DNA of 64,000 bases from Candidatus Kuenenia stuttgartensis (GTDB lineage: Bacteria > Planctomycetota > Planctomycetia > Pirellulales > UBA1268): positions 13,072 to 77,071 of the forward strand of contig CAMDFJ010000001.1 of assembly GCA_945897435.1 (NCBI GenBank), written 5' to 3'. Below are positions 45,478 to 64,000 of the stretch, piece by piece. Numbering within the stretch: position 1 is the stretch's first letter; each line of letters opens with the position of its first letter. The position numbers were made by a program, and so were the translations under genes. The notes beneath the pieces are model-generated. The model saw only the letters and a program-made list of their open reading frames with translations, was not told where the DNA came from and made no database searches.

Positions 45478-48367
<2,890 letters not shown>

Positions 48368-48368
48368 G

Positions 48369-49481
48369 TCAGTCGGCGGCCAACGGCATGATCACGTAGC
48401 CGTAGCCGTCCTCGGTGCGGCAGACGCAGGCGCTCTGGGCGTCGGTGAGTTCCACCGAGACGTTCGCACCACCGTCGAGCACGCGGAGAAAATCGCTCAT
48501 GAACCGGGGGTCCATCTTGATCTTCACGTCGGCCCCATGGAGGTCGATCGGCAGTTCGATCCGGCTTTCGCCGCTCTCGGCCGACCGGCCGGAGAGCACA
48601 AGGGCACCCCGCTGAAAGGCGAAATCGACCCCCTTCGACTGCTCGCTGGTCACGATCGCCGCCTGCCGCACGGCAGCCAGCAGCGGACCGGCCACGAGGC
48701 TCACCCGGACTGCATCAGGCCGCTCTGGGAAGACATCCCGCCAACGCGGAAAGCGGCCTTCCACCAGCCGGGCCGAGATCGTCGTCGGTCCGGTCTTGAC
48801 CAGGATTTCGCTCGGCCGAACGGCCAGATGGATCGGCGTGTCGGCGTTTCCAAGGCAGCGTTCGACAAGCTGCATCGCCCGGGCTGGCACGATCGGCTGG
48901 GCATCGGCGGGCGTGCCGTTCACGGAGGCCGCCGGGCCCTCCATCTTGGCCAGCCTGCGGCCATCGGTGCCGACCGCGGTGACGGCTGTGCTCGTGAGTT
49001 CGAGCAGCACGCCGCCGAGGGCGAAACGGCTCGATTCGTTGTCGGTGGCAAAGACCGTCCGCCGAACGAGTTCCCGCATCAGCGGCGTCGATATCTCGAA
49101 GCAGGGCTCCGCCGGAAAGGTCGCCACCGAGGGAAACTCCAGCGGGTCTTCGGCGGGCAGGCGAAACTCGCTCCGCGGAGCCTTGACCACGGTCGCGGTG
49201 CCATCGGAGTGGATGTCGAAGACCGTGCCGGGACTGCTCTCGCGGACGATCGCCGAGAGCCGCCCGCTGGGGAGCAGCACGGCCCCGGGGGCGGAGGTCT
49301 CAACCCCCTCGATCTCGGTGCGGATACCCACCTCGAGGTCGGTGGCCGAGAGGACGGCCGTGCCCTGCGCGGCCTCGAGTTTCACGTTCGTGAGCACCGG
49401 CTTGGGCGACCTGGCCGGCACGACGGCCGACGCACTCTGCAGGGCCGCCAGCAGCGGCTCTCTCGTACAACGAACTTTCAT
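48369..49481 (-). CDS. dnaN: DNA polymerase III beta sliding clamp
   Basis: ATG at 49481: MKVRCTREPLLAALQSASAVVPARSPKPVLTNVKLEA... 370 aa with a three-domain clamp pattern. Its stop lies 1 nt before the DUF721 ATG. Confidence 0.9.
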   Translation of the reverse strand: MKVRCTREPLLAALQSASAVVPARSPKPVLTNVKLEAAQGTAVLSATDLEVGIRTEIEGVETSAPGAVLLPSGRLSAIVRESSPGTVFDIHSDGTATVVKAPRSEFRLPAEDPLEFPSVATFPAEPCFEISTPLMRELVRRTVFATDNESSRFALGGVLLELTSTAVTAVGTDGRRLAKMEGPAASVNGTPADAQPIVPARAMQLVERCLGNADTPIHLAVRPSEILVKTGPTTISARLVEGRFPRWRDVFPERPDAVRVSLVAGPLLAAVRQAAIVTSEQSKGVDFAFQRGALVLSGRSAESGESRIELPIDLHGADVKIKMDPRFMSDFLRVLDGGANVSVELTDAQSACVCRTEDGYGYVIMPLAAD

Positions 49482-49554
49482 CGAGGCGGATCCGTTCCGG
49501 GAAAACATCTGGGGAAACCCCTACTGTACCCGACTGGAGGCCTCCTGAAATCCC

Positions 49555-49997: not shown

Positions 49998-51920
49998 TCA
50001 GGGTTTTGGTTCAGGCTCAACGCTGCCGCCGACTGCGACTGCCTGCGAATCCTCTGATGGAGTGTCTTCCTGAGGCTTTGTGTCCGTGGCACCTGCCGGG
50101 GCGGGAAAGCTTCGTCCCGGGTCGAGACCAGCCGCTGTCGCGTGGGCCGCCAGTCTCTCCGACAGTCGGGACCAGGTCCGTAGTTTGAGTTCGTCCGGTG
50201 CCCATGCCCAGATCCGCGCTCGAACAAGCACCGGAGTCGACTCCTGCTTCATCGCGCTTTCGAAGGAGGCATCGATGATCCGCGGGAAGGGGGGCAGTTG
50301 GGCCTCTTTATTGACATACTTTGAACCGGGCACACTGGTGCCGAATCGCTTGTCATACATTCGGTGGGCCAGTTTCAGGAATCGGTTGAAGGTGTCGATG
50401 CGGCCCTTGGCGAGTCCGTCCATCATCGCCCGCTGGATCATGGCATCGAGGAACTGCCGCGTGTTCGACAGATCGATCTCCATCACTTCGCCGAGCCGCA
50501 GCGTCAGGAAGCCTTCGAGCCCCTCGGAATAGAGAGGCTGGTTGTCCTTGCCGGTGCCGGCCGCGAGTTCCCGGAGCTTCATGAAACACCCCGCAGCCTC
50601 CTCCTCGTTGCCGTAGAGGTAGGAAAAGACGATCGCCTGCTGCAGGAAAGATTCATAGCCCGTGAGGAGATCCCTCTCAGTGGCCCGGCCGAACGACCCG
50701 GCTGAGACACCCTCATCCGACTGGATGAGTTTCATGGCGTTCTGGATCCCGCGTTCGTAGCCCTCGATGAAACGCGGATCTGGGAGGATGTCGATCCGGT
50801 CGGAATAGGGATCGAACTCGATCCGGCCGGATCGCATGAGATTCTGCAGATTGCCGAGCCGGGTTCGGATGATCGTCAGTTCGTTGACGGAGTCACGCCG
50901 CAGCATATCGCGTCCGAGACGGACACCGCTTTCCGACCAGTAGATGCCGTGGGCGTGCGGATGCGCCCAGTCGAGAGGGCCGTAGGTTTCCATGAGTTCA
51001 GCCATGAAGGCCGGATCCATCCGATAGCGATCGAGAAGAACTTTTTTTTGCAGATGCGGAACGATCACGTTGAAAATCTGGTTGCTGAAGTCGGCATCTG
51101 CGGTCAGTGCGGCCACGACGTCGCGATTTGTGCCTGTTGGAAGCGCCCGGCCGGCACGCAGTTGCGTGTCGAGCGAATTCGTATAGAGAACCACCCTGCC
51201 GAGCATCCGCAGGAAGTCCTCGTCTGCCTTGACCCCAAATGTTTCCATCTTCGCGAGGGCATCACGGAGCGCCGGATCGGCGGCGGCCGAAAGATCCTCG
51301 GGGGCATCGACGATCACCCGAAACCGCCGGACCGCCTCCGCCGAAGTCCGTCCGCCCGTGGTGTCGCCGAGAATCTCGCGGAATTCCCTGGCCAGACGAG
51401 CCTTGTAATACCAGTGCTCGCGGTCGTTCTTGCCACCCACCTTGTGGAAGTAGAGCCAGCCGAGTTCCATCGGCAGGTTGGCATCCTTCGGATTGAGCGG
51501 GATTCCCTGGGAACGCAGCAGTTCGATGCCGCGGTTGACCCAGCCCCAGCGTTCCTCCGCCACCTGAGTCGAAACCGAGATGTTGTAGGCGAGATTCCAT
51601 GCCTGAAAGGCCCAGACCTTGGGAAACCGCGGCTGCAGCGAGGTGATCCACTGGCTCAGCGTCTGGGCCTCGAAAAATTCGCCCTTGTCCTGCAACGCCT
51701 CCGCCCGGGCCCAGAGCACGTCGACGGCCAGCCCGCGAAAGGTGCCGAGGGCCGCCGTGGCCAGCGCCACGTGGGGCGGCATGCCGGCCGTGCCGTCGAT
51801 CGCCATGACGAGTTGCAGATCGCGGCGCTGTGCGGCGATCGATCGCGTGGCAAAACCGGCTCCCACCAGGCATCCGACGAGCGTGATACAGGCGATCGTT
51901 TCAACGAGGCGGTCGTTCAT
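49998..51920 (-). CDS. Conserved-looking hypothetical protein, N-terminal TM anchor, helical-repeat body, acidic tail (640 aa)
   Basis: ATG at 51920; ETIACITLVGCLVGAGFA is the anchor. I recognise no motif. It is the last gene of the six-gene SPFH/ABC string, 10 bp after the permease stop. Confidence 0.5.
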   Translation of the reverse strand: MNDRLVETIACITLVGCLVGAGFATRSIAAQRRDLQLVMAIDGTAGMPPHVALATAALGTFRGLAVDVLWARAEALQDKGEFFEAQTLSQWITSLQPRFPKVWAFQAWNLAYNISVSTQVAEERWGWVNRGIELLRSQGIPLNPKDANLPMELGWLYFHKVGGKNDREHWYYKARLAREFREILGDTTGGRTSAEAVRRFRVIVDAPEDLSAAADPALRDALAKMETFGVKADEDFLRMLGRVVLYTNSLDTQLRAGRALPTGTNRDVVAALTADADFSNQIFNVIVPHLQKKVLLDRYRMDPAFMAELMETYGPLDWAHPHAHGIYWSESGVRLGRDMLRRDSVNELTIIRTRLGNLQNLMRSGRIEFDPYSDRIDILPDPRFIEGYERGIQNAMKLIQSDEGVSAGSFGRATERDLLTGYESFLQQAIVFSYLYGNEEEAAGCFMKLRELAAGTGKDNQPLYSEGLEGFLTLRLGEVMEIDLSNTRQFLDAMIQRAMMDGLAKGRIDTFNRFLKLAHRMYDKRFGTSVPGSKYVNKEAQLPPFPRIIDASFESAMKQESTPVLVRARIWAWAPDELKLRTWSRLSERLAAHATAAGLDPGRSFPAPAGATDTKPQEDTPSEDSQAVAVGGSVEPEPKP

Positions 51921-51930
51921 AAGGCAGATC

Positions 51931-53934
51931 TCACGTCGTAGATCGGATCAGGTCACGGCGATCGAAGGCCAGCCATCCCAGCAGACCGAGTGCCAGGGGA
52001 TAGATGATCCCAATCTTGAGCAGACACGAGAGCACGCTCGACGTGGGGATGACGAGGCCCGTCGCGAGATTCGACACGGCGTCATAGTCTGAAAATGCTG
52101 GAATCATCCAAAGGACGAAATCGTTGACGAAACCAAACAGCATCCTGAAGGCCTCGTAGAACCTGAACTGCACGGCATATCCGCCGGCAAGTGCCAGTCG
52201 CTTGCCGATCAGGCCCAGGGTCGATTCGGCGACGACGTTATAGAGCCCCATTCCCTCCTTGAAGAAGCCACTGCCGAGGGCCGTGAAATAGATGACGAGA
52301 CCAAGCAACGTCGCCGTGGGAAAGCCGAGGCAGGTGGCCGCCGCAACGCCCGCCGCGGCGACCATCGCGAGCTTGATCCAGAGGATTGTCAGACAGCGGA
52401 GAAAGTTGCCGTCGAATCCGCCCACCCTGTGAAAGAGCCGTAGCCCGTCGCCAAACCGGAACGTGATCGCGGTGGGCAGGGTCTCTCCGGGCGGTACGAG
52501 GTTCCGGTTGCCGATCCCGACTTTCAGCCTGCCGGCCTCGTCGATCATCGCGCTGGGAATCTCCAGCACGACCGTCGAGCCGCTCGAAACCCGCTGCTCG
52601 ACATGCTTGCCGTCCTGCATCGGCCAGGGCCTGTCATTCAGCCAGAGTGCGAAGCCCATCTCGGCGAGATCGACTTCGACGTTGTTGGCCCGTGGCTTCA
52701 GCTGGAGCTGCACGACCTGCTTCGTCCTGGCCGTCTCCTCGAGTCCCTGGAAGATGTAGGTCGAGACGGCGTCTGCCGTGACGGTGTGCCAGGCCCAGTC
52801 GTACTCCCGACGGATTCTGGCCCGCACGCCCTCAGGATTTGAGGCAAACGCATCGGGATCGTCCTTTTGAAGCCTATCGATCGCCGCCGCGATCGAGGCC
52901 TCGTAGTCCTCCGAATTTTCATGGACCGGACCGATGCCAGTTCGGGCGGTGAGCACCTGCCGATCGACGGCATCGCGATCGGCCTGATCGGTCGCGACCG
53001 TCGCCTGCAGAACCCGGACGAATGTGTAGGTGCCGGCTCCCGCCAGCCCCACCAGGAGGAGATTGAAGAGGGCGATCCCGAGCCATTTGCCGATCAGGTA
53101 TTCCCAGCGATTGAGCGGCTTCGCGAGCGTCATGTGGATCCGATAGGAGTCGATGTCGCCGCAGACGCTGCCGCAGGCGAGGAAGATCGTCATCAGGCTG
53201 AGAATCAGGCTGGCACCGCCCAGAGCCCAGTTGAGAAAGAACTGCACCCGATATTCGAGTCGTTCGGTGTGGTCGAGGACGAGAGGCATCATCGGGATCG
53301 AGACGACGAGCAGCACGAGCAGGGCAAGCGCCACCCGCATCCGGACCGCCTCTTCGATGACCGTTCGGGCAACGGCGGCGATGCCCAGCGTGCCGCCGAG
53401 AGTGAAGCGGATGGCAGCCAGACCCAGAACACACCCCAGAGCCATGCCGCCAATGCCGGTGAGTCCCGTCGCAGCGATCAGCCATCCGTGCCGCACGAGC
53501 AGCCAGATCGTCGCCGCGACACCGGCGGTCGCAATCGCAACCAGCGCCGGGGCCCGCCACTGAGGCACCCGTCGAAACAGTTTCCAGGTCCACAAGATAA
53601 TGCCGGCAAGTGTCGCGAGTTGGGCTGCGAGTCCCCAGCCAACGCCCAGGGTGCGGGCCAATCCTTCAGCGGCCGCCGATCCCCCGGCCAGCAGTCCAAG
53701 TCCGAAGAGTGTCGTCTGCCAGAGTAGATCGGGTCTGGCGAGACTGACGAGCCCGCCCAGCGCCCAGCCGGCTGAGGCGAGGAGGGTGACAAACCTGATG
53801 ACAGTCGCCAAAAGGCCGGCGTCCTGTGCGATCAGGAGCCTCGCCGCGGCCTCTCCGACCAGCATGATCCCGGCAAGCGAGCCGGCCCAGAGGGCCGCAT
53901 GACGATTGAAGATAGGCTGTTCGGGTCGCTGCAT
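51931..53934 (-). CDS. Large polytopic membrane protein, ABC-2-type permease-like with an extra N-terminal membrane domain and a ~230-aa loop
   Basis: About 5 TM helices, then RTVIEEAVRMRVALALLVLL (the N-terminal motif style of ABC-2/NosY-like permeases), a long soluble insert and a C-terminal TM bundle. 13 bp downstream of the ABC ATPase. Confidence 0.45.
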   Translation of the reverse strand: MQRPEQPIFNRHAALWAGSLAGIMLVGEAAARLLIAQDAGLLATVIRFVTLLASAGWALGGLVSLARPDLLWQTTLFGLGLLAGGSAAAEGLARTLGVGWGLAAQLATLAGIILWTWKLFRRVPQWRAPALVAIATAGVAATIWLLVRHGWLIAATGLTGIGGMALGCVLGLAAIRFTLGGTLGIAAVARTVIEEAVRMRVALALLVLLVVSIPMMPLVLDHTERLEYRVQFFLNWALGGASLILSLMTIFLACGSVCGDIDSYRIHMTLAKPLNRWEYLIGKWLGIALFNLLLVGLAGAGTYTFVRVLQATVATDQADRDAVDRQVLTARTGIGPVHENSEDYEASIAAAIDRLQKDDPDAFASNPEGVRARIRREYDWAWHTVTADAVSTYIFQGLEETARTKQVVQLQLKPRANNVEVDLAEMGFALWLNDRPWPMQDGKHVEQRVSSGSTVVLEIPSAMIDEAGRLKVGIGNRNLVPPGETLPTAITFRFGDGLRLFHRVGGFDGNFLRCLTILWIKLAMVAAAGVAAATCLGFPTATLLGLVIYFTALGSGFFKEGMGLYNVVAESTLGLIGKRLALAGGYAVQFRFYEAFRMLFGFVNDFVLWMIPAFSDYDAVSNLATGLVIPTSSVLSCLLKIGIIYPLALGLLGWLAFDRRDLIRSTT

Positions 53935-53947
53935 GAGGGGCAGAGCC

Positions 53948-55021
53948 TTATCGCTTCACGAGACTGTCGATCAGTCCGTCATCGACCTTTGGCGGGGCGG
54001 GCTGGGTTTCGCCTGCCGGAACATCGGGCTCCGGCTGCCTGGCAATTGCATCGTCCGGCCGGGTCACGTCCCGGAGGAAGTCGGGGATGTGACCGCCCGA
54101 CCGGGCCCCGCTCGTGTCGGTGCCCTCCGAGCGGGCCTTGTCGACGATTTCGAGGAACAGCGATTCGAGCCTGCGTCGGGGACGTTCGACGGCGAGATGA
54201 TCGACCCCGTGTCTGGCGAGGACGCCGCGAATCTCTTCGACGACGGCTTCAGGAATCGCGTCGGTCTGGAGGTTGGTCAGGTTTTCCTGAGACAACAGTT
54301 CGTCGCAGGTGCCCTCGGCCCGCACCTTGCCTCCGAACATGATCGCGACCCGGTCGCAAAGATCCTCGACGTCTGAAAGCTGATGCGTGCAGAGCAGCAC
54401 CGTCTTGCCGCGGCGACCGAGATCCGCGATCAGATCCTTGATCTGCCGGGCGCCGACCGGATCCATGCCGCTGGTGGGTTCGTCGAGGATCAGGAGTTGC
54501 GGATCGTTGATCAGGCTCTGGGCGAGCCCGACCCGCCGCTGCATGCCCTTGGAAAACTCCCCGACGGGCCTGTGCTCCACGGCCTGAAGGCCAACCATCT
54601 CCAGCAGCATGTCGATCCGCTCGCGCCGCATCCGGCCTGGAATCTTGAACAGCCGGCCGTAGTAGTCGAGCGTCTCGCGGGCCGAAAGGAAGCGATACAG
54701 ATAGCTCTCCTCCGGCAGGTAGCCGACATGCTTCTTGGTCGCCACGTCCCGGGGCCTGCGGCCGAGAACGGCGATTCTTCCGCTCGTCGGTGCCAGCAGT
54801 CCGAGCAGCATCTTGATCGTGGTGCTCTTCCCGGAGCCGTTTGGGCCGAGGAGCCCGTAGACTTGGCCCCTGCGAACCTCGAGATCGATCCCCTCCACGG
54901 CCCGCACTCGCGGCCGCATCCAGAAGTCACGAAAGGTCTTCGTGAGCGAGACGCACTTGATGTCGATGCCGTCGGCCGCGGTGCCGGGCGTTGCCTGGGA
55001 AGCGGATGCCGTGCTGATCAT
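53948..55021 (-). CDS. ABC transporter ATP-binding protein
   Basis: Walker A GLLGPNGSGKST, signature-like FSKGMQRRVGLA, Walker B LLILDEPTSGMD and H-loop CTHQ. It carries a C-terminal ~110-aa extension. Confidence 0.9.
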   Translation of the reverse strand: MISTASASQATPGTAADGIDIKCVSLTKTFRDFWMRPRVRAVEGIDLEVRRGQVYGLLGPNGSGKSTTIKMLLGLLAPTSGRIAVLGRRPRDVATKKHVGYLPEESYLYRFLSARETLDYYGRLFKIPGRMRRERIDMLLEMVGLQAVEHRPVGEFSKGMQRRVGLAQSLINDPQLLILDEPTSGMDPVGARQIKDLIADLGRRGKTVLLCTHQLSDVEDLCDRVAIMFGGKVRAEGTCDELLSQENLTNLQTDAIPEAVVEEIRGVLARHGVDHLAVERPRRRLESLFLEIVDKARSEGTDTSGARSGGHIPDFLRDVTRPDDAIARQPEPDVPAGETQPAPPKVDDGLIDSLVKR

Positions 55022-55086
55022 CGCGGTCTGTCCTCCCTGAGTGGATCTCTCTGCCGAGAGCCGGCTCGTCGCCGCCGGCGGCTGCG

Positions 55087-56385
55087 TCAGCGGCGAAACT
55101 TCGACTGTTCTTCCTTCAGCGAGCGGATCTGCTCCTGCTGCCGTTCCTTCTGGATCACCGGATCGCGGTTGAGTTGCAGCTGCAGCTGTCCGGGAACCGT
55201 GTAGAAGGTCTCGACGTCGCCGGTGAGGATTTTTTCCTTGGCATCCTCCCAGAGCCTGGAGAGGATGATTCGTGGGTTTTTCTCATACTGCGGCAGGAGA
55301 CGGTCGAAGGTTTCGCTGTCGGCCTTGATCCGTTCGACGACCTGCGTGCGGTAGGTCTTGGCGGTATTGATGATCCGCGCCACCTCGCCCCCGATCGGGA
55401 CCTGCCCCACGTCGAGGCTCGCCAGCGACTCGTCGATCGCCTTCTCGGCCGCATGCTGCTCGGCGGTGGTGGCGGTTTCGTTGGCTCGTTCGTAACTGTC
55501 GATCAGGGCAAGCAGCTTCTCGCTCCCCTCGCCGGCGGCCTCGCCGAGGATCCGTGCCCTGTCCTGCTGGGCGGCCACGATCCGCTGGGCACGGTCGGTT
55601 TCGGCCGTGGTCACGGCGTCAAAACTCCCCATCACGCTCACCGGCGCAGAGACCTTGTCGAGCGTGAGCTGGTCGATTGTGAGTCCCGTCGACATCTCGT
55701 CGAGCCGGCGTTGGGCGACGCCGGTCGCCGTATCGCGGTTGACGATCCCCTTGAGCAGGTCGTCGGCCGGCAGCTGGGCCACGGCCTGCACCACCCCCTG
55801 CTGCACGGCACAGCGGACGAGGTTTTCCGCGAGCGCCTTGTCGCCGACGTTGGTCACGTACGCGACGGGGTCGTTGACGCGGTAGGTGATCGTCCAGCGG
55901 GCGTGGGCGATGTTCATGTCGCCGGTGAGCAGCGAACCGTCGTAGACGGGATTGAGCGGCCGGCTCCGCGAGTTGCGGATCTGCTCCCGTGTTCGCCCCT
56001 GTTCTCCACCCCTTGTCTCGTACCAAAATTCCTTCTCGAGCGCGAGCGTCATCGGACGGGTGTCGACCTTGACCACCTGCTCAATCGGAAAGGGGGCGGC
56101 CAAATAGGTTCCGCGTTCGAGTACCCGCTCCCCCGGCGATCCGACATATTCGCCAAATCGCAGCCGCAGGGCGACCTCGTTGGAACCCACGCTGAACGTG
56201 CCGCTGAAGGCGTAGGCGACGAGCAACGCGAGCATTGCCACCTTGAGGATGCCGAACGACACCCGCAACGCCTCGGCCAGCGACTGCTGGGCCGGGTCGA
56301 GCGGGGCGGCAAGGCCCGGATCCTGCTCGATCTGCATCGGCGGGAGCTGCCTGGCGACGTCGTTCGGGGCTTCGGGAGTCGTCAT
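55087..56385 (-). CDS. SPFH/band-7 protein, HflK-like
   Basis: A single TM (ILKVAMLALLVAYAF), then an SPFH core (NEVALRLRFGEYVG...YLAAPFPIEQVVKVDTRP) and a coiled-coil tail. Confidence 0.7.
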   Translation of the reverse strand: MTTPEAPNDVARQLPPMQIEQDPGLAAPLDPAQQSLAEALRVSFGILKVAMLALLVAYAFSGTFSVGSNEVALRLRFGEYVGSPGERVLERGTYLAAPFPIEQVVKVDTRPMTLALEKEFWYETRGGEQGRTREQIRNSRSRPLNPVYDGSLLTGDMNIAHARWTITYRVNDPVAYVTNVGDKALAENLVRCAVQQGVVQAVAQLPADDLLKGIVNRDTATGVAQRRLDEMSTGLTIDQLTLDKVSAPVSVMGSFDAVTTAETDRAQRIVAAQQDRARILGEAAGEGSEKLLALIDSYERANETATTAEQHAAEKAIDESLASLDVGQVPIGGEVARIINTAKTYRTQVVERIKADSETFDRLLPQYEKNPRIILSRLWEDAKEKILTGDVETFYTVPGQLQLQLNRDPVIQKERQQEQIRSLKEEQSKFRR

Positions 56386-57344
56386 TGGGTCACGCGATCT
56401 TTCGGAATCTTTTGGGCAGCCTGACCCCCTGGGAGGCCGGCCGGGGCCGGAGCTGTCTGTCCGGGGTCACGATTGAACCAGTCGAGGATCCCGAGGCTGT
56501 CGGCCGAGAGGACGAAGGTCGTGTTGTGGTCGAGCATCTTCTTCAGGGCTTCGACCTTCCGGAGGAAGATCGCGAAATCCTCGTTGCGGGCGAAGCCCTC
56601 GTATTCCTGCGAGGCTTCCCGATCGCCCTGCGATCGGATCGCCTGGGCCCGCCTTTCGGCAAAGGCGAGGATCCGGTCGCGGGCGCTTTGGGCCTCGCTG
56701 CGGATCGCCGACGCCTGGGCCTGCCCCTCCTGAAGGGCATTTTCGGAGAGCCGCTCACGGGTCTTGATCATCGTCTCGAAGATCTTCTCCGTCGTCGATT
56801 CCGGCAGGACGATCTTATAGAGTCCGACGCTCTCCACCTTCAGTCCATAGCCCGACTGGGCGAGCGACGCCTCCAGGGCCTGCTTCGCCTCGTCCTCGAT
56901 CTGGGCGAGCTTGAGCCGGTCGCGATCGAGGTTCACCAGTTCGTCGAGGCGGTAGCGGCTGATCACGCCGCGAATCTCCCGGAGCCGGCTGGAAAGCTGA
57001 CGCGAGGCCTCGTTCGGATCCTTGAGCGTGATGTAGAAGTCGAGCGGATTCTCGATCCTCCAGGTCAGGTAGGTTCGCACGATCACGCTCTTGCCGTCGG
57101 CGGTCTGCAGTTCCTCGACCTTGTCCTCGAGCAGTTGGAGCCGCTTGGAGTAGTGGGTGATCTTGTGGATCGGCCAGGGCAGCCGCCACTTCAGTCCGGC
57201 GCTGTTCTGAACACTGCTGGCGTCGGCCTTGTCGAACGTGGTCCTCACCGCCACCTGGTCGTATCGGACCTGGTAGAGAAACATGTGCGACAGCAAAACG
57301 GCTGCAATGACCGTGCCGACGAGGATGGTGAACGAGTTCTTCAT
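56382..57344 (-). CDS. SPFH/band-7 protein, HflC-like
   Basis: MKNSFTILVGTVIAAVLLSHMFLYQVRYDQVAVRTTFDK... plus an Ala/Gln-rich coiled coil. ATGA overlap with the downstream SPFH gene. Confidence 0.75.
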   Translation of the reverse strand: MKNSFTILVGTVIAAVLLSHMFLYQVRYDQVAVRTTFDKADASSVQNSAGLKWRLPWPIHKITHYSKRLQLLEDKVEELQTADGKSVIVRTYLTWRIENPLDFYITLKDPNEASRQLSSRLREIRGVISRYRLDELVNLDRDRLKLAQIEDEAKQALEASLAQSGYGLKVESVGLYKIVLPESTTEKIFETMIKTRERLSENALQEGQAQASAIRSEAQSARDRILAFAERRAQAIRSQGDREASQEYEGFARNEDFAIFLRKVEALKKMLDHNTTFVLSADSLGILDWFNRDPGQTAPAPAGLPGGQAAQKIPKDRVTQ

Positions 57345-57415
57345 GGTGCCGATGGATGGCCTGGTGGGTGGGATCGTGGGGAGTTGGGAATTTCGTGGGA
57401 CGGGCTCTGCCGGGT

Positions 57416-59491
57416 TTACTCGCCAAGCAGGGTGTCGATGGCGGAGGCTGGATCACTGAAGTCCATCTGCAGCACGGGCAGGCCGCGCTGCTCACCGGCG
57501 ATGACAAACTTCCGTCGTTCGGCGAGGCCCTCCGAGAGCACCTCGAGAAACCGCCGCATCCGGTAGTAGTCGGGCGACTTCTCAAACGCCATCAATTCGC
57601 CGCTGAACCGCTCCTGGGCGCTCCGCTCGCCCACGGCCTTCGTCCAGCGATAGCCCTTTGCCGCATGAATCATCTCGGCCGCCTCGCCGCGGGCGTCGCC
57701 GAGCAGCGTCTGGATGTCGAGTTCCTTCTCGGCCACGAGTTGGCGGCGTGCCTCCGGGTCGGAGGGCATCTCCGTCGCCGTGCCCGACCTCAGGCCGTCG
57801 AGTTCGAGGATCGCGGCATTGATCCGGTTGCTGTGGTCCACCGAGCCGGCCACCTTGGCGAGGGTGACGACAGCGTCCCGTTGGCCCTCCTGGATCAGGG
57901 TTTCCCGCTGCTGCTGGGCTCCGATCTGCTGGTGGAACGCCCGCGACACCTTGCCCCCCGGCGGCTTGAGCGTGGTCACGGAGACCCCGACGACGTCCAT
58001 GCCGAGCCCGAGGGAATCGAGCCGATTCTGGATCTGTCGTTCGAGAATCTCGCCCCCCTCGGTGCGACCGAGCGTGAGCAAGTGATCGATGTCGTGGCTG
58101 GCGAAATAGCGGCTCGCCTCCTGCTGCGCGATGACGGTGATCGCCTCCTTCGGGCCCATCGAGCCGGCGAGGAAGTCGATCAGGTTGCGGACCCTGTACT
58201 GCACCACGACATCGGCATTCACAAGCGCCATGCCGCCGCCCGTCCCCTCGGCGGGACCGGCATGTCCGACCCTGGAATCGAGGGCGGTGGGGTAATACTC
58301 CATTCCCACCTTGGCGGCGTTGTCGTCGCCACCCGTCCAGAGGATCGCCTGCTCTTCCGCACCGCGTCCGACCGGGTCGCTCGACACCGTGATCTGCAGC
58401 ACCTTGCCCACCGGATAGGTCGAAGCCGTCTCGAGCGGCCAGGGCAGTTTCAGGTGCATTCCCGGTCCACGGGCCTCTCCCTGGATCGCCCCAAACCGCA
58501 GGATCACGCCCTGCTCGTCGGGGCCGACGATGACGAGCGTGCTCAGGGCCATCAACACCGCGCCAGCCAGGATCGCCAGCGGCGTCACGGCCCGGCCGAG
58601 CAGTTGATAGAGCCAGCTCCGCGAAACCTCGACGCCAAACTGGTAGTTGATCAGCTCGCCGACGACCTTCCCGAGCGATTCTGGGGCCGTCAGCAGGCCG
58701 AGAACCCGGCTGTCAAACGCCGGCCGGGGCATTTCGCCGGGACGCTTCGGACGGTAGGCGGCGAGCAGTGATGTGAGCAGGATCTCGACCCCGACCAGCA
58801 CCATCACGGCGGGCACGGCGACGGCGACGATCCGGAAGAAACTCGTGTCATTGAGGATCGAGGCCACGATCCCGCCGGCGAAGACGAGGGCCGCCAGCAC
58901 GAAGCAGCTCATCAGGTAGCTGGCCCCGCCGCGGAGCAGCTGCCAGGCCCGGACCCGCGTGTAGCCGCTGATCCAGCGGGCGGAGATGAAGGCCACGAAG
59001 GCGATCGCTCCGGAGACAAACATCAACGCCACTGGATTCACATCGGCCGCGATCGTCATCCCCGACGGGGTGTCGCGGCCGGCCAGCGTCGCCAGCCTCC
59101 AGAAGAGGGCCAGCCCGGCCAGGATCAGATAGCCCGCGACGAGGAAACTCACCGCCGGCAGGCCGTAGCCGATCAGGTTTGCAAGCCGCTGTCGGGCCCG
59201 CTGCAACTCATCCGAGAGGTCGCCAAAGAGCACCGACGAGGCGGCGTCCTGGGTCGCCAGCCGTTCCGATGCAAGCGTCTCCCGACGCTCCGCCTCATAC
59301 TGGTTGTAGACCAGGGCGAGGATGATCCAGATCGGCAGACCAGCGAGGAAGTGCCAGGTCGCGGCCTGCACGGCCGGGCTTTCCGTCCAGAGGCCGACGA
59401 TCCCCATGGCGACCGTCAGGGCCACCTGGATCACGAGTCCGGCGATGGCTGCCGTGGTGCCACGGCGGAATGTAAGTTGGTCGTCGTGCAC
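57416..59491 (-). CDS. Fusion protein: ~300-aa polytopic membrane domain + SPFH/band-7 (HflK-like) domain
   Basis: GTG start at 59491. About 7-8 hydrophobic helices, then VIVGPDEQGVILRFGAIQGEARGPGMHLKLPWPLE (SPFH core) and a coiled-coil C-terminus. Confidence 0.7.
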   Translation of the reverse strand: MHDDQLTFRRGTTAAIAGLVIQVALTVAMGIVGLWTESPAVQAATWHFLAGLPIWIILALVYNQYEAERRETLASERLATQDAASSVLFGDLSDELQRARQRLANLIGYGLPAVSFLVAGYLILAGLALFWRLATLAGRDTPSGMTIAADVNPVALMFVSGAIAFVAFISARWISGYTRVRAWQLLRGGASYLMSCFVLAALVFAGGIVASILNDTSFFRIVAVAVPAVMVLVGVEILLTSLLAAYRPKRPGEMPRPAFDSRVLGLLTAPESLGKVVGELINYQFGVEVSRSWLYQLLGRAVTPLAILAGAVLMALSTLVIVGPDEQGVILRFGAIQGEARGPGMHLKLPWPLETASTYPVGKVLQITVSSDPVGRGAEEQAILWTGGDDNAAKVGMEYYPTALDSRVGHAGPAEGTGGGMALVNADVVVQYRVRNLIDFLAGSMGPKEAITVIAQQEASRYFASHDIDHLLTLGRTEGGEILERQIQNRLDSLGLGMDVVGVSVTTLKPPGGKVSRAFHQQIGAQQQRETLIQEGQRDAVVTLAKVAGSVDHSNRINAAILELDGLRSGTATEMPSDPEARRQLVAEKELDIQTLLGDARGEAAEMIHAAKGYRWTKAVGERSAQERFSGELMAFEKSPDYYRMRRFLEVLSEGLAERRKFVIAGEQRGLPVLQMDFSDPASAIDTLLGE

Positions 59492-59677
59492 GTCAGAAAA
59501 CCCTTACTTTCGAGTGTAGCCTTCCAAAATCGGGCCGCAGCCGGGCGGGCGTTAGAACTTCATGAGCGATGCTGCCAATCCGGCCGCTGTCACCGATGAT
59601 GGTGATCAGAGATCTAAGGGCCCTGCTAGCGGGCCGTCTCGGCAGCCCCGAGAAAATCGCGGCCTCGGAGCACACGG

Positions 59678-60685
59678 ATGAACGTCCTCTCGATCGCCCG
59701 CAACGGATTCCTCGAATCGATCCGCCAGCCGGTGTTCGTGGTGCTTCTTTTGGGGGGGACGCTGGCAATGGTGCTGAACGTCAACCTCGCCGCCTTCACG
59801 CTCGAGGACGACAACAAACTCCTGATCGACCTCGGACTGAGCACGCTGTTCATCGCGGGTCTACTGCTCGCCGCCTTCACCGCCACGAGCGTGCTCTCGA
59901 GGGAGATCGAAAACAAGACGGTGCTCACGGTGGTGAGCAAGCCGGTCTCGCGGGCGTCGCTCGTGATCGGCAAGTATCTCGGCGTGGCGGGGGCGCTTGC
60001 GGTTGCCTACTGGGCGCTGTCCGTCGTTTTTCTGCTCGCCGTGCGTCACCGTGTCCAGTCGAGCGTGCGGATCGACGACACCTTCGACATGCCGGTGCTC
60101 GTCTTTTCGCTGCTCTTCGGCGGGCTTGCCCTTCTGGGGGCGGCCCTCGCCAACTATCTCTACCGGCGGCCATTTCCGAGCGTCTTCGCCATCAGTTATG
60201 CGATCGCGCTCACGATCGCCCTGGCGATCGTCTGCTGCGTCAGCCGTGAGTGGGCATTTCAGGATCCGCGGGTGGAGTGGAGGCCGCAGCTGATGATCGC
60301 CCTGGGGCTCGTCTTCCAGGCGATCCTGGTGCTGGCCGCGGTCGCGATCGCGGCCTCGACCCGGCTCGGGCAGGTGATGACGCTCGTCGTCTGCCTGGGG
60401 GCGTTTCTGGCGGGGCTTGTCAGTGAATACTTTCTCGGCACGCTCCTGACCGGCCCGGCCACCGAGGCAGGCGGCCCGGCTGCTTCGGGCCTGGCAAAGT
60501 CGCTGCTCTGGCCGCTCTATCTCGCCATCCCGAATCTGCAGTTTTTCTGGCCCGCCGACGCGCTCACGCAGGGCCACGAGATCACGCTCGGCTATTTCGG
60601 CAGCGTCACGCTCTACGCGGCGCTCGTGATCGGCGCTCTGATCAGCCTGGCTGTCTTGCTCTTCCAGCGTCGCGACGTGGGCTGA
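59678..60685 (+). CDS. ABC-2-type permease-like membrane protein
   Basis: MNVLSIARNGFLESIRQPVFVVLLLGG is a typical ABC-2/NosY-like N-terminus, followed by 6+ TM helices. Divergent from the SPFH operon. Confidence 0.5.
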   Translation: MNVLSIARNGFLESIRQPVFVVLLLGGTLAMVLNVNLAAFTLEDDNKLLIDLGLSTLFIAGLLLAAFTATSVLSREIENKTVLTVVSKPVSRASLVIGKYLGVAGALAVAYWALSVVFLLAVRHRVQSSVRIDDTFDMPVLVFSLLFGGLALLGAALANYLYRRPFPSVFAISYAIALTIALAIVCCVSREWAFQDPRVEWRPQLMIALGLVFQAILVLAAVAIAASTRLGQVMTLVVCLGAFLAGLVSEYFLGTLLTGPATEAGGPAASGLAKSLLWPLYLAIPNLQFFWPADALTQGHEITLGYFGSVTLYAALVIGALISLAVLLFQRRDVG

Positions 60686-60689
60686 GGCG

Positions 60690-62639
60690 ATGCGATCCGA
60701 GCCGTCCGCTTCGACCGCCGCAAACGCCTTCCTGCAGCGGCTGTTGGGGTCGCCATGGCTCGTCGGGGCGGGGTTCGCGGTGCTCGCCTTCGCGATCTTC
60801 TGGCCCTGCCTCGACGGTGGCCTGATCTGGGACGACAGCGGGACCTTCATTACCGAGAACAAACTCAATCGCGACCCGCTGGGCCTCTGGAAGATCTGGT
60901 GCTCCTTCACCGCCCCCGACTACTGGCCGCTGACCTACACGGCATTTTGGGCGGAGTGGCGGCTCTTCGGTGAGGCTCCCCGCGGGTATCACATCGTCAA
61001 CGTCCTGCTCCATGTGATCACCGCCCTGCTCGTCTGGGGCGTCCTCGAGCGGCTTTCGATCCGGCAGGCCCTGATCACTGCCCTCATCTTCCTTGCCCAT
61101 CCGCTCAACGTGGAGTGCGTCGCCTGGATCGCGCAGCAGAAGTCGTTGCTCGCGACGGCCCTGATGTTTGCGTCGGCTCTGGCCTATCTGCGTCGGGATT
61201 CCGGGTCGATTGGCGGCAAGGAGGGCAGTGCGACTGCCTGGTATGCGGCCACACTCTGCCTGTTCGTGGCGGCGCTTGCCGCCAAGACCTCTGTCGTGAC
61301 ATTCCCTCTGGCACTCCTCGGATATGAGTGGCTCTGGCGGGGAGCGGAGCGTCGGCGACCGCTGGCAACGCTCCCGTTCTTCGCGGTCGCCTTTCTGTTT
61401 GGTCTGCTCACCGTGCTCTGCAACCTGCATCACGGCACGTCCTCGGTGCACGACACAACCGCTCTGGAGAAGCTGATCAGGGCCTCATGGGCTGTCTGGT
61501 TCTATCTCTGGAAAACGGTCTGGCCGCTCGATCTCTGCTTCGTTTACCCGAAGTGGCGGGTCGATCCCTGGTCGCCAGCCGCGTGGATCCCGGGGTTTGG
61601 GCTCGTCTGCCTGCTGGGTCTGGCCTGGTGGTGCCGCGGATCCTGGGGCCGGCCGGCGCTGGCCGGACTGGGCTGGTTTCTGCTGCTGATCCTGCCGGCG
61701 TCCGGCCTCGTCGACATCTACTTCCTCAGTTTTGCCCCGGTCGCGGATCACTATGCCTACCAGTCGCTTCCAGGCCTGATCGCATGGCTGGTGCATGTCG
61801 CGACTGCCGGCATGGAAAGCCTGGCAGACCGAGTGGTGCCGCGGGCCCTCAGAATGCCCCTCATCGCAGGCCTGGCAACCCTGCTGGTTGCCGCATTCGC
61901 CTGGATCTCCCACGACGTCAGTCGCCGTTACGTTGACGAGGAGACGATCTGGCGGCATACGATCGCGCACAATCCCGAGAGTGAGGTCGCCTACAACAAT
62001 CTGGGCGCGATTGCCCGATCCCGCGGCAACGACGAAGAGGCGATCGCCTGCTTTCGGGAGGTCGTGCGGATTCAGGGCCAGGTCACCACGACGGCCCGGG
62101 GAACGGTCAACTACCGGGGCATGATTGCGCTCTCACACTATCGGGCAGGGCGGCTCGCGGAGGCGGCCCTGGAACTCGACGGCCTGCTGGCAAGCGACGC
62201 CTTTCAGAAGGGAAACCACGAGCCGAAAGGGATCGTGGGTATCGGCAATCTTCGCGGCAAGGTGGCCGAACTGCTCGGAGATTCCAGCCTCGCTGCCGCC
62301 TGCTATGCCAAGTCGTTCGACGTGCTGCAGGTCGAAAACACCGAGGCGGCGGGCTACTGTCTGCTCGCCGATGTGAGGCGGCGCTTTGGCGACCGCGGTG
62401 GGCAGGATGCCTATGCCGCCTTGTCGGACGTGACGGCCCGCTATCCAGGAACGCTCGCCGCCTCCCGGGCCCACCACGACGCCGGCCTGATCATGCTGCG
62501 GGCCGGCAGGCCGGCAGTCGCCGTGGCCCACTTTCGCAAGGCAATCGAACTCGAGCCCCGGGCCACCGATTCACGGGATCAATTGGCCGTGGCCGTCGAG
62601 GCTACCGCCAATGAGACGGAATCAGCGAACCCGAGATGA
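60690..62639 (+). CDS. TMTC/PMT-like polytopic glycosyltransferase (GT-C fold) with C-terminal TPR repeats
   Basis: IWDDSGTFITENK..., YWPLTYTAFWAEWRLFG, YHIVNVLLHVITALLVW and FLAHPLNVECVAWIAQQKSLL match the DUF1736/TMTC-type pattern. AYNNLGAIARSRGNDEEAIACFREVVRI is a TPR. Confidence 0.65.
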   Translation: MRSEPSASTAANAFLQRLLGSPWLVGAGFAVLAFAIFWPCLDGGLIWDDSGTFITENKLNRDPLGLWKIWCSFTAPDYWPLTYTAFWAEWRLFGEAPRGYHIVNVLLHVITALLVWGVLERLSIRQALITALIFLAHPLNVECVAWIAQQKSLLATALMFASALAYLRRDSGSIGGKEGSATAWYAATLCLFVAALAAKTSVVTFPLALLGYEWLWRGAERRRPLATLPFFAVAFLFGLLTVLCNLHHGTSSVHDTTALEKLIRASWAVWFYLWKTVWPLDLCFVYPKWRVDPWSPAAWIPGFGLVCLLGLAWWCRGSWGRPALAGLGWFLLLILPASGLVDIYFLSFAPVADHYAYQSLPGLIAWLVHVATAGMESLADRVVPRALRMPLIAGLATLLVAAFAWISHDVSRRYVDEETIWRHTIAHNPESEVAYNNLGAIARSRGNDEEAIACFREVVRIQGQVTTTARGTVNYRGMIALSHYRAGRLAEAALELDGLLASDAFQKGNHEPKGIVGIGNLRGKVAELLGDSSLAAACYAKSFDVLQVENTEAAGYCLLADVRRRFGDRGGQDAYAALSDVTARYPGTLAASRAHHDAGLIMLRAGRPAVAVAHFRKAIELEPRATDSRDQLAVAVEATANETESANPR

Positions 62640-64000
62640 TGCCGCGAGCCGATCGGCCTCGGCCTGCTCGATCTCCTCGCCGCAGCGGACGAGCCGGGCG
62701 GAGTTGAAGATCACGACCAGTCCGCTGGCGATGTGGAGGAAGGCCGCCGTCACGGGCGACACGTATCCCGCCCCGGCCAGCCCGAGAAAGACGACGATGA
62801 ACAGGGCCCCGATGATCATGTTCTGACGGATCACGCTGATCGTGCGGCGGGAGAGTTCGATCAGAAACGGAATCCGGTTGAGGTTGCTGTTCATCAGGGC
62901 GATGCTCGCCGAATGGATCGCCACGTCGCTGCCGGCGGCACCCATCGCGATCGAGATGTCGCCCGCGGCGAGGGCCGGGGCGTCGTTGACGCCGTCGCCG
63001 ATCACGGCCACGCGATGCCCCTTGGCCTTGAGTTCGTCAACCATTTCCAGTTTTTCGTGCGGCAGCACCTCGGCCTTGAACTCGCTGAAGTGCATCTGGT
63101 CGGCGATCCGACGGGCGACGCTTCTGCGGTCACCGGTCAGGATCACGAGCCGCTTGAGACCCAGATTCTTGAGCCGATCGACCGCCTCGGCCGCCTCGGG
63201 GCGGGCGTTGTCCTCGAGGCCGATCCAGCCGGCGAGCCGGCCATTTTTCACGACATAGAGCACGCTCATCCCGTCGGCATCGTCGCTCGACTGGATCCGC
63301 TCAACGGCGGCAACCTCGGCGTTGGAAAGGCCGGCGTCACCGGTCGTGAGCCATGAGCCGCGGCCGACCATGATCCGGTTGCCGTCGATCGTGGCGATCA
63401 CACCGCGGCCGGCGATCTCCTCGAAGGCCTCGGGGCGGGGAAGGGGGATGTTGGCCCGGCGGGCCATCTCGGTCACGGCCCGGGCCACCGGGTGGCGGCT
63501 GTCCTGCTCAGCCGTGGCCGCCAGTCGGAGGAGTTCGGCGGCCTCGACGCCCTCGACCGGGGCCAACCGGCTGACGGAGAGGATGCCGGTCGTCAGCGTG
63601 CCCGTCTTGTCGAACACGATCGCCGAGAGGTTGCGGGCCGCCTCGAGCGTGACCACGCTCTTGACGAGCACGCCGAGCCGGGCGGCGGCCGAGAGCCCGG
63701 CCACCATCGCCGTCGGCGTGGCGAGGATCAGGGCGCTCGGGCAGGCCACGACGAGCATCGCGATCGCCCGGCTGAAGGCGGTGTCGGGGTCGCTTCGCAG
63801 GGCAAAGAAGAGAACGATGCCGACGAGCATCAGCACCGTCGGCGTGTACCAGACGGCGTATTGATCGACGAGACGCATGATCGGCGTGCGGGTTCGCTCG
63901 GCCTGCAGGATCAGGTCCTTGACCCGTCCGAGGAGCGTGTCGCCGCCGGCCTTGGTGACCTCGATATCCATCACGCCGGTGAGGTTGATCGTGCCGCCGA
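62622..64000 (-). CDS. P1B-type (heavy-metal) P-type ATPase, 5' part lies beyond the window end
   Basis: VFDKTGTLT (phosphorylation site), GDGVNDAPALA and VACPSALILATPTA (a CPx-type TM6 motif, here CPS). The reading frame is still open at base 64000. Confidence 0.85.
   Translation of the reverse strand, partial: GGTINLTGVMDIEVTKAGGDTLLGRVKDLILQAERTRTPIMRLVDQYAVWYTPTVLMLVGIVLFFALRSDPDTAFSRAIAMLVVACPSALILATPTAMVAGLSAAARLGVLVKSVVTLEAARNLSAIVFDKTGTLTTGILSVSRLAPVEGVEAAELLRLAATAEQDSRHPVARAVTEMARRANIPLPRPEAFEEIAGRGVIATIDGNRIMVGRGSWLTTGDAGLSNAEVAAVERIQSSDDADGMSVLYVVKNGRLAGWIGLEDNARPEAAEAVDRLKNLGLKRLVILTGDRRSVARRIADQMHFSEFKAEVLPHEKLEMVDELKAKGHRVAVIGDGVNDAPALAAGDISIAMGAAGSDVAIHSASIALMNSNLNRIPFLIELSRRTISVIRQNMIIGALFIVVFLGLAGAGYVSPVTAAFLHIASGLVVIFNSARLVRCGEEIEQAEADRLAASSRVR

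Follow-up and report, generated by a model that had tools for sequence, protein, structure and literature searches.

A putative eight-gene membrane system of Planctomycetota combining an SPFH trio, a P1B heavy-metal ATPase and an ABC-2-type transporter

The role of bacterial SPFH (band-7) proteins beyond the HflK/HflC-FtsH complex is a long-standing question. In Pseudomonas aeruginosa, genes PA2439-PA2435 encode an HflK-family protein, HflC and an HflC-family protein together with the P1B ATPase HmtA; depletion of zinc upregulates the locus, and a gel-shift assay shows binding of Zur to the PA2439 promoter (PMC4542158; PMC8531726; PMC11761036). This SPFH trio, PaFlo5-7, stands beside hmtA without an assigned role; its distribution is patchy, it was probably transferred horizontally, and the paper describing it does not mention the pump (PMC13086221). 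Other scaffolds are known to enclose or cluster transporters: stomatin cages enclose AQP1 and UT-B (PMC12407830), and PacL organises P-ATPase "effluxosomes" in M. tuberculosis (PMC9374683; PMC13043812). Here, a cluster of six genes (g1 to g6), encoding three SPFH proteins, an ABC (ATP-binding cassette) transporter of the ABC-2 type and a 640-residue protein, was analysed in a 64,000-nucleotide stretch of DNA (the window; contig CAMDFJ010000001.1, positions 13,072 to 77,071, assembly GCA_945897435.1, deposited as Candidatus Kuenenia stuttgartensis and placed by GTDB in Pirellulales, UBA1268). The six genes form a genuine operon, retained in two planctomycete classes and in at least 15 more of the families sampled. 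Comparison of gene neighbourhoods and phylogenies indicates that they belong to a larger, eight-gene membrane system, which includes a P1B heavy-metal pump and a second ABC-2 permease and is a candidate platform for transition-metal trafficking.

Genes g1 to g6 are the six minus-strand open reading frames (ORFs) in 5' to 3' order, and u1 and u2 are the divergent upstream genes. Coordinates are those of the window unless prefixed by a locus (L) or contig (C) label; lengths are in amino acids (aa).

g1, 57416-59491, minus strand: 691 aa, GTG start, HflK-like SPFH protein (Band_7, 58.7 bits)
g2, 56382-57344, minus strand: 320 aa, HflC-like SPFH protein (Band_7)
g3, 55087-56385, minus strand: 432 aa, HflK-like SPFH protein (Band_7)
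g4, 53948-55021, minus strand: 357 aa, ABC-2-type ATPase (ABC_tran, 115.6 bits), DrrA/GldA/NodI-like
g5, 51931-53934, minus strand: 667 aa, atypical ABC-2-like permease (ABC2_membrane_2, 25.2 bits, against a gathering score of 27.2)
g6, 49998-51920, minus strand: 640 aa, membrane-anchored TPR-like alpha-solenoid, no Pfam or NCBIfam match
u1/g1 divergent promoter region, 59492-59677, no strand: 186 bp
u1, 59678-60685, plus strand: 335 aa, second ABC-2 permease (ABC2_membrane_2, 37.6 bits, against a gathering score of 27.2)
u2, 60690-62639, plus strand: polytopic membrane protein with C-terminal TPR repeats (Pfam TPR families)
P1B heavy-metal P-type ATPase, 62622-64000, minus strand, cut by the window end: Pfam E1-E2_ATPase and Hydrolase, TIGR01525 at 550 bits

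An earlier note on this DNA, made from its letters and ORFs, had described six minus-strand genes starting with three SPFH paralogues. The ORF list and the sequence reproduce all of the lengths, gaps and the overlap given there, and Pfam and NCBIfam find Band_7 in each of the first three proteins. The gaps from g1 to g6 are, in order, 71, -4, 65, 13 and 10 nt, and the ATGA overlap of g2 and g3, seen directly in the sequence, points to translational coupling. Gene u1 is transcribed divergently from g1, and no ATPase gene of its own adjoins it in the window. The pump is ~3 kb upstream of the trio, beyond u1 and u2.

Conservation of this arrangement was examined by scanning one genome per species, which gave g6 relatives in 293 species, of which 80 loci were fetched (50-73% identity in Pirellulales, 30-35% in Phycisphaerales). 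Forty g6-like neighbourhoods from many families and seven neighbourhoods of g1 matches were added, and synteny was read by tblastn and with profile hidden Markov models built from the orthologues. Counts refer to the 83 loci in which the sequence upstream of g6 covers 9.5 kb or more and, the loci having been sampled via g6 and g1 matches, describe the retrieved loci rather than the phylum at large. The order, with u1 pointing away from g1-g2-g3-g4-g5-g6, is found in both classes. Genes g4 and g5 are adjacent in 72 of the 83 loci, u1 is present in 69 and the SPFH trio in 63; u1 accompanies the trio in 61 of these 63. Where present, the trio always reads g1, g2, g3 and immediately precedes g4 or a pump gene followed by g4; no partial trio occurs among the 83 loci, so that its inheritance is all-or-none. 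The trio is also directly upstream of g4 or pump-g4 in five of the seven additional g1 loci; in one, L134, the contig ends after the pump. With order and strand repeated in 63 of 83 loci, and this down to ~25-35% protein identity, the arrangement is far beyond chance. The linkage survived rearrangements as well: in some loci the pump adjoins u1 and in others it separates g3 from g4, and u1 may point either way (sharing the direction of g1 in L085, L093, L097, L101, L102, L118 and L134). Conserved linkage, which the earlier note had named as the observation to check, is thus borne out across two classes and many families, and the adjacency is not a matter of chance.

The pump gene runs past the end of the window; its full open frame, which extends to the contig end (L123:694-2679), encodes 661 aa, scores above the TIGR01525 cut-off and has no N-terminal metal-binding domain. 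In several distant lineages, ~2 kb between g3 and g4 encode a P-type ATPase of ~650 aa that is 46-52% identical to it. The pump occupies this position in at least 13 loci, and also in L128-L132; in L134 it follows g3. In 18 Pirellulales loci, and in several further families, its orthologue is directly next to u1. Overall, 32 of the 63 trio loci, as against none of the 20 trio-less loci, have a pump next to u1 or in the g3-g4 interval. In six of eight trio-less genomes a g1 homologue is missing at E<=1e-10; the pump was also looked for in three of the genomes, two of which lack an orthologue while the third has nothing closer than a 33% match. The six-gene unit originally drawn was therefore too narrow; with u1 and the P1B ATPase the system appears to comprise eight genes. 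Gene u2, between u1 and the pump, seems to have been inserted in a particular lineage and not to be a conserved member of the system, because a syntenic u2 homologue was found only in L003, while the pump directly abuts u1 in the 18 other Pirellulales loci.

The pumps linked to SPFH genes form a distinct subfamily. Around the motif of the fourth transmembrane helix (TM4) they read CP[C/S]A[L/I/F][I/V]L[A/S] and not the canonical CPCALGLA, which is present in the unlinked planctomycete paralogues. Most lineages, and Proteobacteria, have CPC as the core motif; the clade of the window has CPS, and CPG, CPT or TPC occur in a few lineages. In the pump tree, the SPFH-linked pumps of both phyla and unlinked copies of Phycisphaerales make up one clade (support 98/95), separate from generic pumps and from the unlinked planctomycete paralogues. 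The support for a pump clade spanning two phyla is, as far as these sequences go, good but not final.

The proteobacterial members of this clade lead to the closest relatives of the planctomycete trio. In a plasmid search with g1, the genes annotated "HflK" that were recovered were better matched than canonical hflK. Genes for a long HflK (568-672 aa), HflC, a third SPFH protein and a P-type ATPase follow one another on plasmids of Paraburkholderia, Klebsiella and Rhizobium and on a Raoultella chromosome; the junctions mostly overlap, with just one overlap in Paraburkholderia. The long-HflK family comprises 1,717 matches at E<=1e-20, the best 120 of which are all from Enterobacterales. Each of g1 and the proteobacterial long HflK is the other's best hit, their alignment continues into the polytopic domain of g1, and the two form a clade with a support of 99/97 in a maximum-likelihood tree; g2 and the HflC of the proteobacterial operon are likewise reciprocal best hits. 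Both g1 and g2 match the proteobacterial operon proteins better than the canonical pair of their own genome. Reciprocal hits and the tree thus indicate that two of the three SPFH genes correspond across the phyla and the third does not.

Such hmtA-type operons share with the planctomycete cluster three tandem SPFH genes, of which the first is long and polytopic, and a P1B ATPase without an N-terminal metal-binding domain, and at least 13 planctomycete loci have the identical order g1-g2-g3-pump. They differ in that Planctomycetota add an ABC-2 ATPase, two permeases and a TPR-like anchor, in that g3 is not an orthologue of the proteobacterial third SPFH gene, and in that the window pump is ~3 kb away, beyond u1 and u2, with CPS in TM4 where the proteobacterial pumps have CPC. 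The earlier statement that no described system matches the cluster has to be modified: trio and P1B pump appear to form a module common to two phyla, and the hmtA locus matches it by gene order. On one plasmid, of Paraburkholderia sprentiae (L125:64-7658), an operon for a Znu-type zinc ABC importer ends ~4.4 kb upstream of the operon of the SPFH trio and P-type ATPase, and a GTP-binding protein and a PCu(A)C copper chaperone (~0.7 kb from the SPFH-trio operon) are encoded in the same region, which looks like a metal-acquisition island.

The trio of the cluster is an additional, divergent set, distinct from the housekeeping HflK/HflC. Against the NCBIfam equivalog models for hflK (TIGR01933, cut-off 159.4 bits) and hflC (TIGR01932, cut-off 134.4 bits), all three proteins fall below the cut-offs (g1, 107 bits with hflK; g2, 116 bits with hflC; g3, 116 bits with hflK). 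The genome of the window (3.0 Mb, 205 contigs, 96% complete) contains five Band_7 genes, three in the cluster and two as a tandem pair on contig C62, and it is this separate pair, scoring 272 bits (hflK) and 228 bits (hflC), above the cut-offs, that identifies the canonical HflK/HflC. The earlier reading of the cluster as a distinct membrane machine is supported in this respect. Phylogenetically, g2 falls within the HflC clade and g3 is sister to canonical HflK (support 92/88), and the g1, g2 and g3 subtrees give the same well-supported lineage groupings.

As in the HflK/HflC-FtsH system of Escherichia coli, g2 and g3 are adjacent and overlapping, belong to the canonical clades and each encode a single N-terminal hydrophobic segment, by hydropathy scan, followed by an SPFH domain; this resemblance makes a hetero-oligomeric, periplasm-facing ring plausible. 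The cluster differs from that system in its third subunit, g1, in which a hydropathy scan shows a polytopic N-terminal domain of ~300 aa, with ~7 hydrophobic segments, ahead of an SPFH domain predicted to face the periplasm. Residues R172, G189, E236, S261 and G286 of this N-terminal domain are invariant in both Planctomycetota and Proteobacteria, E236 being a membrane-embedded glutamate. It has no match in Pfam or the PDB, and these searches did not tie it to a recognisable transporter domain. Gene g1, more diagnostic of the full system than any other, was found in 51 of the 301 genomes sampled from the phylum (40 of 238 genera, ~18 families), and is absent from a family of the same class with large genomes (f3). 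A lone g1-type gene, near which g2, g3, the pump and the ABC genes were not detected, occurs at L133 (G039:C38, 11986-14238), the only such exception.

FtsH and NfeD, the partners expected of HflK/HflC and of many SPFH genes, are absent from the cluster, as had been noted: the two FtsH genes of the genome are on contigs C179 and C24 and NfeD is only on C139, with neither on the contig of the window, and no NfeD adjoins the SPFH genes as it does in SPFH-NfeD operons. The trio might nevertheless be a specialised FtsH modulator, forming an alternative cage on one of the FtsH paralogues and thereby tuning the proteolytic quality control of the neighbouring transporters. To our knowledge, HflK/HflC-FtsH is the only structurally established bacterial client relationship of this SPFH subfamily, which favours such a role, as do the positions of g2 and g3 in the HflC and HflK clades and the presence of two FtsH genes. 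A zinc proteomics preprint also suggests a link to the zinc protease HflB (PMC11761036). The genome, however, already has a canonical hflK/hflC pair, no FtsH gene was detected in any cluster examined while a pump or ABC transporter is nearly always there, and g1 carries an extra conserved polytopic domain that HflK lacks. We consider FtsH modulation quite unlikely.

The remaining genes, g4, g5 and g6, represent a planctomycete ABC-2 family that is spread across the phylum. ATPase g4, which has a C-terminal tail of ~100 aa, is closest to DrrA (226 bits) and GldA (200 bits, cut-off 402.6), both scores being below the cut-offs. The AlphaFold2 model of g5 (pLDDT 85.8, pTM 0.79) consists of six extra N-terminal transmembrane helices, an ABC-2-like core and an insert. 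The latter (residues 312-506, ~195 aa) is an alpha/beta jelly-roll-like domain between core TM3 and TM4, predicted to be periplasmic; the hydropathy scan likewise shows a loop of ~200 residues between core helices, and Foldseek gives only weak matches to carbohydrate-binding (CBM) jelly-rolls and BcsB-like folds (E ~1e-2 over ~135 columns). For g6, which has a single N-terminal hydrophobic segment, the model (pLDDT 84.6, pTM 0.81) shows an N-terminal transmembrane helix followed by a TPR-like alpha-solenoid. Foldseek found only generic TPR superhelices (E >1e-3, TM-score 0.1-0.2), and g6 has no Pfam TPR match and no match to a PDB sequence.

Proteins similar to g6 occur in 218 of the 301 genomes of the phylum, mostly directly after g4- and g5-like genes. 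The family, without a Pfam model, comprises 2,933 clusters at 50% identity, and hundreds of its members are annotated "hypothetical". The most conserved part of g6 is residues ~45-185. A motif GP.DW.HP.AHG.YW at residues 314-328 (~50937-50981, minus strand) has D317 and H324 invariant and H320 nearly so in both classes, and could be a metal- or ligand-binding site on the solenoid. In two metagenome-assembled genomes the g6 frame extends to 1,245 aa (L009:10001-13738 and L017:10001-13738), which could reflect fusion to a downstream gene or a lost stop codon.

Like the GldA/GldF/GldG, NosF/NosY and DrrA/DrrB exporters, the cluster has a DrrA/GldA-like ATPase, permeases matching ABC2_membrane_2 (u1, and g5 below the gathering score), the family used to test the earlier comparison with GldF, and an accessory membrane-anchored protein. 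It differs from them in the absence of a GldG-type ABC_transp_aux domain, in the six extra helices of g5 with the jelly-roll insert in another loop, and in g6, which is without known relatives. A GldF/GldG identity of g5 and g6 was rejected, as ABC_transp_aux is not matched, the scores do not reach their cut-offs and nothing specific came from Foldseek or the PDB; neither protein is a known transporter accessory, in agreement with the first description of them as unfamiliar. A defence function was also rejected, PADLOC having returned only a generic ABC-ATPase similarity for g4.

The exporter features could point to a role in the envelope, in which the ABC-2 transporter moves a glycan, lipid or other envelope component from a site organised by the SPFH ring, the pump being incidental. 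Glycans, lipids or drugs are the usual export substrates of ABC-2 (type V) transporters, the insert of g5 has a weak resemblance to BcsB and to carbohydrate-binding jelly-rolls, and g4 is closest to DrrA/GldA. The fold matches are weak, however (E ~1e-2); the pump is tied specifically to trio loci (32 of 63 against 0 of 20) and shared with Proteobacteria; and no conserved neighbour for glycosyltransfer or lipid synthesis was seen, most other neighbouring ORFs not having been scanned. An envelope role with an incidental pump therefore appears distinctly improbable.

The reading we prefer, to which we give about an even chance, is that the cluster encodes a single platform in the membrane that serves transition-metal trafficking and in which Planctomycetota have joined two modules. 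Module A would comprise the SPFH trio g1-g3 and the distinct P1B ATPase subfamily, and module B the ATPase g4, the permease g5 with its predicted periplasmic jelly-roll insert, the permease u1 and the membrane-anchored TPR-like scaffold g6. Proteins g1, g2 and g3 may assemble, on the periplasmic side of the membrane, as a hetero-oligomeric ring or cage of the HflK/HflC kind, corralling the co-encoded pump and ABC-2 transporter instead of, or besides, FtsH, with the polytopic domain of g1 and g6 as possible docking elements. The platform would traffic a Zn/Cu-type transition metal across the cytoplasmic membrane. HmtA is reportedly an importer; most P1B pumps export. We infer this mechanism from homology to the HflK/HflC cage, the all-or-none co-inheritance of the trio, the separate canonical pair and the precedent of stomatin cages (PMC12407830). 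Stomatin cages and PacL effluxosomes resemble the proposed platform in that a scaffold clusters or encloses transporters and P1B pumps are held in organised membrane platforms; they differ in that their composition is not homologous, PacL is not an SPFH protein, and the stomatin homo-oligomer faces the cytoplasm.

Several observations weigh against a single metal-trafficking platform. The correspondence to the hmtA locus is one of published gene order, not of sequence, and P. aeruginosa in which the trio was knocked out had no phenotype in the laboratory (PMC13086221). The third SPFH gene of Proteobacteria is on a separate long branch and g3 is not its orthologue. Generic plasmid P1B pumps rank above SPFH-linked ones in BLAST searches with the window pump (39-40% versus 36-38% identity), so the expectation that SPFH-linked pumps would be the best plasmid matches failed; only the tree groups the SPFH-linked pumps, with a long proteobacterial branch and modest outgroup sampling. 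Phycisphaerales do have a member of the pump clade, but it is not linked to the cluster. No metal-binding motif was identified in g1, g5 or g6, and the positive-inside rule is ambiguous as to the membrane side of g6. Finally, module B has SPFH-free paralogues on C28 of this genome, in G303 and across many further families, and the proteobacterial SPFH/P1B operons have no ABC-2 genes, from which it follows that the two modules can work independently.

The last point raises the question of whether the two modules are merely co-located, perhaps co-regulated, but functionally independent and not one machine. SPFH-free u1-g4-g5-g6 or g4-g5-g6 paralogues are indeed common (L026, C28, L100, L104-109, L112-122). 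The C28 paralogue consists of a g4-like ATPase (L124:5167-6267), a g5-like permease (L082:23-1651) and a g6-like protein (L082:1621-3204) of 527 aa that is similar to g6 only over the N-terminal ~130 residues. Locus L026 has u1-g4-g5-g6 without the trio, and the same genome carries a full eight-gene cluster on another contig (L127); an interpretation of L026-type loci as split clusters was for this reason rejected in favour of paralogy. The opposite picture emerges from the trio loci: the trio is directly upstream of g4 or pump-g4 in all 63 and in five of the seven extra loci, the pump has been inserted between g3 and g4 in at least 13, the linkage outlasts rearrangements at ~30% identity, and the gaps in the window are at most 65 nt save for the 71-nt g1-g2 gap, with some junctions overlapping. 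Functional independence of the modules thus seems unlikely. The trio had originally been called hard-wired to an ABC exporter, which is accurate as seen from the trio, always placed before g4 or pump-g4, and does not hold as seen from the ABC family with its SPFH-free paralogues.

A bolder version of the platform, which we regard as very unlikely, is that the trio builds a periplasm-facing chamber which encloses both the pump and the ABC-2 transporter, giving a nanocompartment where the metal meets a second exported substrate; the latter would be a ligand or a metal-insertion target. If this were true, it would be the first SPFH cage with two different transporter clients and a dedicated organelle-like metal-handling structure of the planctomycete cytoplasmic membrane.

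A literature search found no paper mechanistically linking SPFH proteins and P1B pumps and none describing the planctomycete cluster. This analysis adds the pump as a conserved member of that cluster, the two phylogenies and the division of the ABC module into paralogues. In two phyla the SPFH trio appears to have been inherited along with a distinct subfamily of P1B pumps, and the planctomycete trio is bound further to an ABC-2 transporter that involves two uncharacterised protein families, one of ~3,000 clusters. The cluster thereby nominates concrete, genetically linked candidate clients of an SPFH ring, making the idea of a cage around a transporter testable, and points to a possible widespread, unstudied metal-handling route in abundant freshwater planctomycetes.

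In the u1/g1 divergent promoter region, which is poorly conserved overall (33%), the motif CTCATGAAGTTCTAAC is located at 59551-59566 on the minus strand, ~30 nt upstream of a TACACT -10-like box. It has one match in the window against 0.05 expected, and may be an operator or a -35 region element. The exact motif is found at the same relative position only in L001, L003 and L032; a conserved operator thus amounts to a shallow motif common to three close relatives, Zur/Fur-like boxes not having been sought. Counts from promoter and terminator scans are no higher than in shuffled sequence, and the terminator-like matches on the strand of g1-g6 all lie within coding sequence, with none in the intergenic gaps.

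Downstream of g6, beyond a gap of ~490 bp, the cluster is flanked by two genes that are not its conserved neighbours in other genomes:

dnaN, 48369-49508, minus strand: downstream flank of g6
gyrB, 45478-47970, minus strand: downstream flank of g6

In the distant lineage represented by L118, a DUF4139/DUF4140 protein (L118:1664-3607) is inserted between u1 and g1, and a Peptidase_C92 protein (YaeF/YiiX-type amidase; L118:9962-11095) follows the pump within the cluster.

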